Source of the DNA: Gammaproteobacteria bacterium
GTDB lineage: Bacteria > Pseudomonadota > Gammaproteobacteria > Coxiellales > Coxiellaceae
Direction of reading: 5' to 3'
Assembly: GCA_022601255.1 (NCBI GenBank)
Contig: JAHZIV010000038.1
Coordinates: forward strand, 16,959 to 80,958
Length of the DNA: 64,000 nucleotides
Positions 8,879 through 9,685 of this stretch are shown piece by piece. How positions within the stretch are numbered: the first letter of the stretch is position 1; every line of letters starts with the position of its first letter. Below the pieces are notes generated by a model. That model was given only the letters and a program-made list of their open reading frames with translations, was not told the DNA's origin and ran no database searches. The position numbers and the translations under genes are program-made.

Positions 8879-9271
8879 TCACACCTGCTGTGCGGCGCTA
8901 ATCACATTCTTATAGATTAAAAGACTGTAGCTGATAATTCCCTTTATTTGTTGCTCTGATAAAGGCTTACTAAATTTCTGTATTGCTTCTTGTAATGCCT
9001 TCTGCAATATCGCAACATCAATTTTCTGCTGAACCTTTAATGAATCCTCATCACTCTGTCGGTCCAGTATCAACCAATTTGCATCAACATTAAAACATTC
9101 ACAATAGTATCGCACCATTCGCGGATTTAATGATCGCTTGCCTGTTTCGTGCTGTGAATACGTTGACTCCGGTATATTATAATGGCGCGCAAACGCACGC
9201 GCTGAGCGGAACCCAGCATCCTTCCGGGCTTTTTGTAAGCGTTTTCCGATTTGAAAGTCCAGTTCTTGCAT
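8879..9271 (-). CDS. XRE-family helix-turn-helix transcriptional regulator
   Basis: N-terminal HTH IGKRLQKARKDAGFRSARAFARHYNIPESTYSQHETGKRS. 130 aa. Confidence 0.8.
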   Translation of the reverse strand: MQELDFQIGKRLQKARKDAGFRSARAFARHYNIPESTYSQHETGKRSLNPRMVRYYCECFNVDANWLILDRQSDEDSLKVQQKIDVAILQKALQEAIQKFSKPLSEQQIKGIISYSLLIYKNVISAAQQV

Positions 9272-9361
9272 ACAACCACCTTATTTTTTACTAATTAACG
9301 TTGAATATATTCGTGAAATTACCACTACTTATTTAAATTTGCAACTGTGAATTTAAAAAAA

Positions 9362-9391
9362 TTGCATAAAATTATGTCATTAGAGTATAAT
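9362..9391 (+). promoter_or_regulatory. Putative sigma70 promoter of csrA
   Basis: TTGCAT (9362-9367), 18-nt spacer, TATAAT (9386-9391). About 105-nt leader follows. Confidence 0.4.
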
Positions 9392-9502
9392 GATATGTCC
9401 TGATAGGAAATTTAACAACCAAATACTCTCTTCAGGGTGGTGACGTCCGACGGAACGGAACCATAACGGTGTCACCATTGAAGTAAAAGGAGTCTATTAG
9501 AT

Positions 9503-9685
9503 ATGCTAGTCCTAACCCGCTCTGTAGGTGAACGCCTCATTATCAATAATGGTGAAATTAAATTGAGTGTACTCGAAATCAAAGGCAATCAAGTTCGCAT
9601 TGGTATCGAAGCACCTAAAAACATTGCCATCCACCGCGAAGAAATCTTCAATCGCATCAAGAAAGAAGAGAAAGAAGAAGCTTAA
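9503..9685 (+). CDS. csrA: Carbon storage regulator CsrA (RNA-binding translational regulator)
   Basis: [12 protein letters not shown]...[22 protein letters not shown] matches the CsrA signature along its whole length. 60 aa. Confidence 0.9.

Follow-up and report, generated by a model that had tools for sequence, protein, structure and literature searches.

What is a csrA gene doing between a divergently transcribed XRE-type regulator and a giant orphan gene in a member of the Coxiellaceae? The question is raised by the window, the 64,000-nucleotide stretch of DNA analysed here at its full length, which corresponds to contig C81 of a 1.92-Mb assembly (42.3% G+C) and carries the gene order prlC-rpiA-(XRE)-csrA-(giant)-hpf. 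A sequence-only reading of the window had described a divergent XRE/csrA pair abutting the giant gene, and the open reading frames (ORFs), the family matches and the 10-nt gap between stop codons bear this description out; it had gone on to propose an acquired accessory module and a dedicated switch for the giant gene. Comparison with relatives leads to a different answer. The window csrA is the second CsrA paralogue of the Coxiellaceae, passed on by vertical descent, and the ancestral order was prlC-rpiA, csrA and hpf on one strand. With a probability of about 0.72 for the whole, we favour the joint reading that this core paralogue of the csrA-1 class gained an XRE gene by insertion in one clade, that the palindromic repeat beside it is unrelated, that the interval next to csrA is a variable slot for genes with a PmrA-type box, and that XRE and CsrA would act by the regulatory mechanism set out below.

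The csrA gene (9503..9685, plus strand) encodes 60 residues and was assigned by Pfam and NCBIfam matches and by position to the rpiA-linked core class, the type of Coxiella burnetii csrA-1. Its product matches PF02599 (E=7e-22, 77.5 bits against a cut-off of 27), the NCBIfam CsrA equivalog NF002469 (88.3 bits, cut-off 73) and TIGR00202 (77.6 bits, cut-off 70.1). The RNA-binding residues are retained, namely Leu4 in the N-terminal MLVL... and the arginine of the VHREE motif, which here reads ...IHREEI; a one-residue insertion moves this arginine to position 45. The protein is 52% identical to the canonical CsrA of its own genome and 60% identical to a third copy on contig C75. In relatives whose XRE proteins share 62–77% and whose rpiA products share 78–81% identity with those of the window, CsrA is 95–97% identical, and the window csrA appears to be under purifying selection.

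Three csrA genes were counted in the source genome, so the extra paralogues that the sequence-only reading had suggested looking for are present. Its remark that the window copy lies outside the usual housekeeping context also held: the canonical csrA is on contig C38, behind recA, recX, alaS and lysC (neighbours identified by eye), and lysC and/or alaS homologues flank about 23 of the 29 canonical copies retrieved from relatives. The third copy (C75:9047-9208, minus strand, locus L002) begins MLILTRKNKETIVIGKNKEIKVTVLNIRGNQVQ and lies 2.5 kb beyond icmJ (NF038221, the IcmJ equivalog, 287 bits) and a VirB4-like icmB, with a 91-aa LuxR/GerE-family gene and an O-methyltransferase gene as neighbours. 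This Dot/Icm-linked type recurs in only four other genomes (G018, G031, G077 and G008); the C75 copy is the truly accessory csrA of the genome.

CsrA was found in 62 of the 63 family genomes scored, usually in two copies, and we retrieved about 60 non-canonical csrA copies with 6-kb flanks to read their contexts. The class that includes the window protein, recognised by 'MLVLTR(S)(I/V)GERLII', is found at the rpiA locus of 47 genomes, which represent at least 17 of the 24 genera. At about 30 of these 47 loci rpiA is followed by csrA on the same strand across a gap of 44–363 bp, hpf lies 48–260 bp downstream of csrA in 13 loci, and the usual order of the slot is prlC-rpiA-csrA-hpf. Since the GTDB order holds the same 64 genomes as the family, the rpiA-csrA neighbourhood is conserved order-wide, which is the very finding that the sequence-only reading had named as speaking against an accessory module. 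Its comparison with the cassettes on Legionella integrative and conjugative elements (ICEs) thus gave way to a csrA in a conserved rpiA–hpf slot.

The same slot leads to C. burnetii, whose CsrA-1 is likewise a second chromosomal CsrA besides the canonical one and is encoded near raiA/hpf (PMC6759588). CsrA1 is CBU0024 and RaiA is CBU_0020 (PMC6759588, PMC4766238), which places csrA-1 four locus tags from raiA/hpf, and the critical arginine of CsrA-1 is at position 46 (10.1101/679134). The rpiA-linked copies of the genus Coxiella have the 'MLVLTR' N-terminus, and two of them (L050, L055) carry Arg46. Because of the rpiA/hpf slot, the locus tags and Arg46 in these two copies, we file the window csrA as a positional orthologue of csrA-1. 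The Coxiella-genus loci examined differ from the window in that they have no divergent XRE gene, the rpiA-csrA gap being 196–363 bp without an ORF; several small Coxiella-genus genomes also have a CsrA insertion of about 30 aa, which the window CsrA does not share. As a separate observation, the rpiA-linked CsrA proteins of L100-L103 and L108 (genus g3, genomes of 0.6–1.7 Mb) contain a Thr/Glu/Ser-rich insertion of about 30–40 aa after 'RLIIG', giving proteins of 91–101 aa in which the remainder is conserved.

How did the XRE gene enter this slot? The gene (8879..9271, minus strand) encodes a 130-aa regulator of the XRE/Cro-CI type that matches HTH_19 (35 bits, cut-off 30.2) and HTH_31 (27.7 bits, cut-off 27). 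Its AlphaFold2 model (predicted local distance difference test score 81.7) consists of a five-helix helix-turn-helix (HTH) domain followed by two long C-terminal helices. The fold matches, best among them ImmR, ClgR, SinR and P22 c2 and further including C.AhdI and HigA, are generic Cro/CI-type DNA-binding domains, and the model superposes on those of ImmR, C.AhdI and P22 c2 at 1.3–1.8 Å. Neither the profile matches nor the model contain a sensor or peptidase (S24) domain.

Among GTDB species representatives, an XRE orthologue between rpiA and csrA occurs only in the genus of the window, in G013 and in genus g19, and in three GTDB genera the XRE gene is likewise divergent from csrA. A metagenome profile search returned 85 XRE relatives. 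Wherever full-length identity reached at least 45% and the metagenome context was readable (9/9), csrA was divergent from the XRE gene, and rpiA and prlC lay behind the latter. Distant relatives of 185–187 aa, 55% identical in the HTH, sit in unrelated contexts and not beside csrA. In a prlC+rpiA tree, 10 of the 11 XRE-bearing loci fall into one clade (support 99/97) with two subclades, A (window, L116, L243 and L117) and B (L245, L066, L017, L246, L018 and L247). Monophyly of all 11 was not rejected by the approximately unbiased (AU) test (p = 0.18). Because the XRE-bearing loci track the housekeeping phylogeny, vertical inheritance of the XRE gene is indicated; most likely it was inserted once between rpiA and csrA and then passed on by descent.

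The surroundings of the pair agree with a chromosomal setting. Beyond the XRE gene lie prlC and rpiA; beyond the giant gene lie a gene for an hpf product fused to a cold-shock-like domain (CSD), a PEBP gene and cdd. The ORFs of the window include no integrase, type IVA secretion system (T4ASS) or lvrA/lvrB near the pair, no tRNA lies within 30 kb around it, and the G+C content of the locus is native to the genome. An acquired islet spanning 8648-19280, as had been supposed, finds no footing here, given the lack of integrase, tRNA and T4ASS and the agreement of the XRE loci with the housekeeping tree. The left boundary assigned to this islet, a 213-bp palindromic element between rpiA and the XRE gene (8648..8860), is real as a palindrome and fails as a boundary. 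It has inverted arms at 8660-8682/8823-8845 (23 nt, 91% complementarity) and 8648-8657/8851-8860 (10 nt, 100%) and its fold is a long hairpin of -75 kcal/mol. Other contigs (C12, C33, C106 with two, C36, C99, C92, C60 and others) carry eleven more copies, full or partial, at 74–94% identity, and nothing aligns with it on the sister-species contig L116. As one copy of a dispersed repeat family with 12 or more members, it marks no unit boundary; it is an insertion resembling a miniature inverted-repeat transposable element (MITE) and is unrelated to the regulatory unit.

The XRE gene and csrA are separated by a 231-bp spacer of 32% G+C without an ORF, and an Rfam scan of 8500-9800 gave no match. 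We aligned the spacers of four subclade-A lineages, with XRE proteins 55–77% identical to that of the window, together with L117, and obtained four conserved blocks. A predicted xre promoter (9316..9344, minus strand) has a -35 element TTGCAA (9344-9339), a 17-nt spacer and an extended -10 element TGgTAATTT (9324-9316); the block, which reads AAATTACCA...TTGCAA on the plus strand, is kept in all XRE-bearing intergenic regions compared. A predicted csrA promoter (9362..9393, plus strand) has a -35 element TTGCAT (9362-9367), an 18-nt spacer and a -10 element TATAAT (9386-9391), and its core, spacer included, varies at two positions across the four lineages. The two promoters stand back to back with their -35 elements 17 bp apart, and the region that they share is the best-conserved non-coding stretch of the spacer. 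These elements show csrA to have a predicted sigma-70 promoter of its own. A TTGCTA-N17/18-TATAAT promoter also precedes csrA in genera that have no XRE gene, indicating that XRE was added onto an existing csrA promoter. A 17-bp palindrome, TCATTAGAGTATAATGA (9377-9393), overlaps the csrA -10 element; it has a single occurrence in the window, and we would guess it to be the XRE operator.

Downstream of this promoter, the csrA leader contains a predicted CsrA-binding architecture (9436..9492, plus strand). A hairpin at 9436-9479 exposes GUCCGAcGGAACGGAACC (9445-9462), and the Shine-Dalgarno sequence AAGGAG follows at 9487-9492. Across five lineages the 18-nt core, GUCCGAnGGAACGGAACC, is invariant except for the N of GUCCGANGGAACGGAACC; the outer stem is kept, with compensatory changes in 3 of the 17 predicted pairs, 2 of them in the outer stem. 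The fold energy of the whole leader is no better than that of shuffled sequences (z = -0.67), and the support for the hairpin therefore comes from conservation and not from energy. Leaders of subclade B keep a related ...CCGAC..GGAACGGGAGG as the Shine-Dalgarno sequence. A scan of metagenomes for the leader core TCCGANGGAACGGAACC matched at least 120 loci; since none among the matches listed encodes CsrA, we regard these as chance matches. One GGA in a hairpin and another in the Shine-Dalgarno sequence make up the classic layout of CsrA repression, and the leader would thus fit control by CsrA.

This layout has precedents. In Legionella pneumophila, canonical CsrA binds GGA sites in the mRNA of the core paralogue csrR and represses its translation (PMC4471563). 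The GGA hairpin and GGA-containing Shine-Dalgarno sequence of the window leader resemble this circuit and the autoregulation of E. coli csrA, a likeness that suggests, by analogy, a similar loop. Legionella CsrR is 28% identical to CsrA, begins 'MD' (Asp at residue 2) and has its binding site in the first codons (PMC4471563). The window CsrA is no CsrR orthologue, because it is 52% identical to canonical CsrA and begins 'MLVL' with Leu at residue 2.

From these elements we propose the following mechanism. The XRE protein would dimerise through its C-terminal helices and bind in the 231-bp spacer, with the palindrome over the csrA -10 element as the candidate operator. Binding would autoregulate xre and repress or gate transcription of csrA. 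The csrA transcript would begin with a leader of about 100 nt, in which the GGA hairpin lies about 30 nt upstream of the GGA-containing Shine-Dalgarno sequence; a CsrA dimer, formed by either the window paralogue or canonical CsrA, could bridge both sites and so limit translation. The CsrA product would then act in trans on GGA-bearing mRNAs, one plausible target being the mRNA of the giant gene, which would not be the reason for which csrA exists.

Several observations weigh against the joint reading or parts of it. On the side of ancestry, a csrA tree built from 68 columns clusters the class labels strongly (0/500 shuffles as low) and does not recover the rpiA-linked class as a single clade, so that position is the main basis for orthology with csrA-1. 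The prlC+rpiA tree does not put the XRE-bearing genus G013 within the XRE clade. On the side of the mechanism, the palindrome TCATTAGAGTATAATGA overlaps the -10 hexamer, and its conservation may for this reason be mere promoter conservation. By its two A(N)GGA motifs at -75..-16, the csrA leader ranks among the highest 7% of 1,148 crude gene starts, a modest enrichment, and the leaders of XRE-less genera cannot be aligned with that of the window. Recombinant C. burnetii CsrA-1 did not bind the canonical multi-GGA small RNA CbsR12 in vitro, and transposon mutation of csrA-1 caused no intracellular phenotype (10.1101/679134); given the failure to bind a multi-GGA RNA, the csrA-1 class may not read GGA sites in the canonical manner.

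The same two published results, with fragmented copies in some reduced Coxiella-genus genomes (L106, L107), would fit a csrA-1 class that is a decaying or non-functional duplicate. We hold this to be highly improbable. As a family-wide core gene that is 95–97% identical where its neighbours reach about 80%, the class is argued to be functional: it is intact in 47 genomes, the window protein retains Leu4 and the HREE arginine, and its promoter, leader and Shine-Dalgarno sequence are conserved in the lineages compared here. In addition, csrA-1 is transcriptionally regulated during C. burnetii development (PMC4766238). Even less credible is the reading of XRE-CsrA as an acquired accessory cassette of the Legionella ICE kind (lvrR...lvrC/csrT), with an islet at 8648-19280 bounded by the palindrome. 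An XRE gene beside a non-canonical csrA does recall lvrR/lvrC (PMC3864950), in both cases a phage-repressor-like HTH regulator and a CsrA paralogue in an intracellular bacterium with Dot/Icm; the genome has extra csrA copies, a mobile-looking palindrome stands at the left edge, and none of 63 related genomes has the giant gene. In lvrRABC, however, LvrR has a domain of the SOS/S24 type, lvrA and lvrB lie between lvrR and lvrC, and the cassette heads a type IV secretion system on a mobile island (PMC3864950). The window pair is divergent and chromosomal, lies between housekeeping genes and is inherited vertically; lacking an S24 domain, an intervening ORF and a tRNA, and having native G+C and housekeeping flanks, it falls outside the lvrRABC/csrT group. 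Neither lvrA/lvrB nor an integrase or T4ASS is present at the locus, csrA occupies the same rpiA–hpf slot across the family and order, the XRE-bearing loci follow the housekeeping tree, the base composition is native, and the palindrome belongs to a dispersed repeat family and is missing from the sister contig.

Two further explanations concern what the pair regulates. XRE might have nothing to do with csrA, being a self-regulated repressor with other targets that was inserted here by chance, or the relic of a lost element. That csrA keeps its own promoter in XRE-less genera, that the related 185–187-aa proteins sit in unrelated contexts, and that the XRE protein of G018 is truncated to 93 aa while csrA there is intact would all be in keeping with this. 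Yet the divergent pairing is kept in 12/12 close-homologue loci with rpiA identity down to about 60%, and the promoter region shared by the two genes is the best preserved of the non-coding spacer; we therefore regard an unconnected XRE as rather unlikely. In the other explanation, either the pair or CsrA by itself serves as a post-transcriptional switch dedicated to the convergent large gene, working through a GGA hairpin in its 5' untranslated region (5'UTR), through transcripts overlapping at their 3' ends, or both. A large gene converges on csrA in 6 of the 11 XRE-csrA loci, the 5'UTRs keep CAUGGA where the proteins have no detectable similarity, and the stop codons in the window are 10 nt apart with no terminator-like signal found between them. 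Against such a switch, csrA is older than the large gene and is present without it in most genera, XRE-bearing ones included; a single A(N)GGA motif occurs in the 5'UTR of 21% of genes; the convergent genes of relatives are 130–155 nt apart or parted by a small ORF; and the window search found no second candidate XRE operator near the giant gene. A dedicated switch is thus unlikely. What stands of this proposal is that A(N)GGA is kept in the 5'UTR across lineages; what does not is the dedication, with csrA far older and more widespread and 5 of the 11 XRE loci without a large gene.

The giant gene itself (9696..18998, minus strand, within an ORF extending to 19013) has 3,100 codons from the ATG at 18998. 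Its stop codon (9696) converges on that of csrA (9685) with 10 nt between them, and because no terminator-like signal separates the two genes, their transcripts likely overlap at the 3' ends. Neither Pfam nor NCBIfam assigns the protein to a family, 63 genomes of the Coxiellaceae gave no match, and a word search against 5.8 billion proteins found only the protein itself. A homologue is present at the same site and in the same orientation on the sister-species contig L116, aligned at 36% identity across about 1,800 aa and at 28% across about 1,100 aa, beside flanks that are well kept (rpiA 81%, prlC 82%, CsrA 95% and XRE 77% identical). Such divergence next to such flanks marks the gene as clade-specific and very fast-evolving. 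A shared C-terminal 'RRxSLS...GFF' motif of the large proteins was dropped, being present in only 2 of 5 tails.

The promoter and 5'UTR of the giant gene (19006..19106, minus strand) comprise a PmrA-type box, TTTAATATTTTCTTAACATA (19106-19087), followed after 7 nt by a -10 element TACTAT (19079-19074), and a Shine-Dalgarno sequence GAGGAG (19011-19006). The search for A(N)GGA in this 5'UTR that the sequence-only reading had proposed was positive: CAUGGA (19047-19038) lies in a predicted hairpin loop, one such motif being what 21% of genes have. The PmrA box that Zusman et al. reportedly described in 2007 is a tandem TTAA-N7-TTAA, cTTAATatT-N2-cTTAATatT, at a fixed distance from the -10 element. 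With this consensus the giant-gene box shares 15 of 18 positions, and TACTAT is exactly 7 nt downstream. Genome-wide, 57 PmrA-type boxes were found against 3–12 in shuffled sequences. TAnnnT stands exactly 7 nt 3' of the box in 40/57, the figure for random positions being 10% at any of five offsets (5–9 nt), and 47/57 precede an ORF against 52% at random. Two boxes lie in the icmJ/icmB region, and those of the window are at 19106-19087 (minus strand) and about 44954 (plus strand). The giant gene is accordingly a candidate PmrA-regulated Dot/Icm effector gene by promoter type, and its mRNA is a plausible CsrA target.

In C. burnetii, genes named 'cig' are those co-regulated with icm genes. One of them, cig2/cvpB (CBU0021), is an orphan effector gene between hpf/raiA and csrA-1 (PMC4117601). 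By position and promoter type the giant gene resembles it: both are domain-less, lineage-restricted genes in the slot, cig2/cvpB belonging to the PmrA regulon and the giant gene having a PmrA-type box. They differ in size, 810 aa for cig2/cvpB versus 3,100 aa for the giant.

Large domain-less genes recur at this place in the XRE-bearing loci. They converge on csrA in the window, L116, the P0018 contig, L243, L246 and L247, which are 6 of the 11 XRE-csrA loci readable there; the other five (L016, L017, L018, L117 and L245) have no large gene on the csrA-distal side. The Pfam-less products reach at least 905 aa in L243, at least 2,492 aa on the P0018 contig, 1,733 aa in L246 and 1,694 aa in L247, and these four genes are divergent from hpf wherever that side can be read. 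No homology of the giant to the large genes of L119, L120 and L243 emerged from tblastn and hhalign searches. The large genes of L246 (3735-9039) and L247 (3981-9172) have the same slot and orientation and no detectable homology to the giant. Nor do their proteins share BLAST similarity with each other, though their flanks are 76–79% identical (rpiA and prlC 79%) and CsrA is 95% identical. Both have a PmrA box spaced as at the giant gene and, conserved between them, a 5'UTR of about 100 nt with a UACGA-AGGA-UCGUA hairpin and CAUGGA, the latter common to the window 5'UTR. This pair could have arisen by extreme divergence, or else by an exchange of the coding cassette while promoter and leader stayed in place. 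In G018, the third member of their clade, the large gene has been lost.

Other features of the slot vary between lineages. The hpf homologue of the window (19281-19868, plus strand) fuses a Ribosomal_S30AE domain to the C-terminal CSD (E=6e-5), and the fusion is kept in relatives, with weak CSD matches in L117 and L247. Five subclade-B loci (L017, L018, L245, L246 and L247) have an ORF of about 100 aa without a Pfam match after csrA on the same strand; it is 50–74% identical among lineages and absent from the genome of the window and from subclade A. At genus g6 loci (L052, L057, L063, L077 and others), csrA is inverted relative to rpiA and convergent with it over a 4-nt overlap, and the interval from hpf to csrA holds ORFs of 585–1,366 aa encoded on the csrA strand. 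Here the same rpiA-csrA-hpf slot has been rearranged in a different way; PmrA-like boxes before its large ORFs were not convincing.

A further combination of these elements, which we consider doubtful, would make XRE, CsrA-1 and the convergent PmrA-box gene a three-layer cassette. PmrA would switch on a giant protein that is hypervariable and probably translocated, and the giant mRNA would be held by CsrA-1 through the GGA hairpin in the 5'UTR of that mRNA, CsrA-1 being gated in turn by XRE and its own GGA leader. This 5'UTR hairpin appears to be kept also in lineages whose coding sequence is no longer recognisable or has been exchanged. To our knowledge, Coxiella CsrA-1 has no known function or targets. 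If the three-layer cassette were true, it would provide the first assigned function for the CsrA-1 class.

Under the joint reading that we prefer, the new element is modest: a core gene of the CsrA-1 class gained a vertically inherited XRE partner in one clade of the Coxiellaceae. Also new are the strongly conserved GGA leader and the position of csrA next to a variable slot for giant genes with PmrA boxes. The leader hairpin, the XRE partner and the PmrA-box gene with its conserved 5'UTR are concrete and cheap experimental handles. The locus also carries a caution, in that a phage-like repressor next to a CsrA does not suffice to mark a mobile element. For the uncultured Coxiellaceae, the set of PmrA-type boxes offers a list of candidate genes of the Dot/Icm regulon and its effectors, and fast-evolving candidate effectors appear to have settled repeatedly in the rpiA-csrA-hpf slot, which may aid effector discovery in this family.

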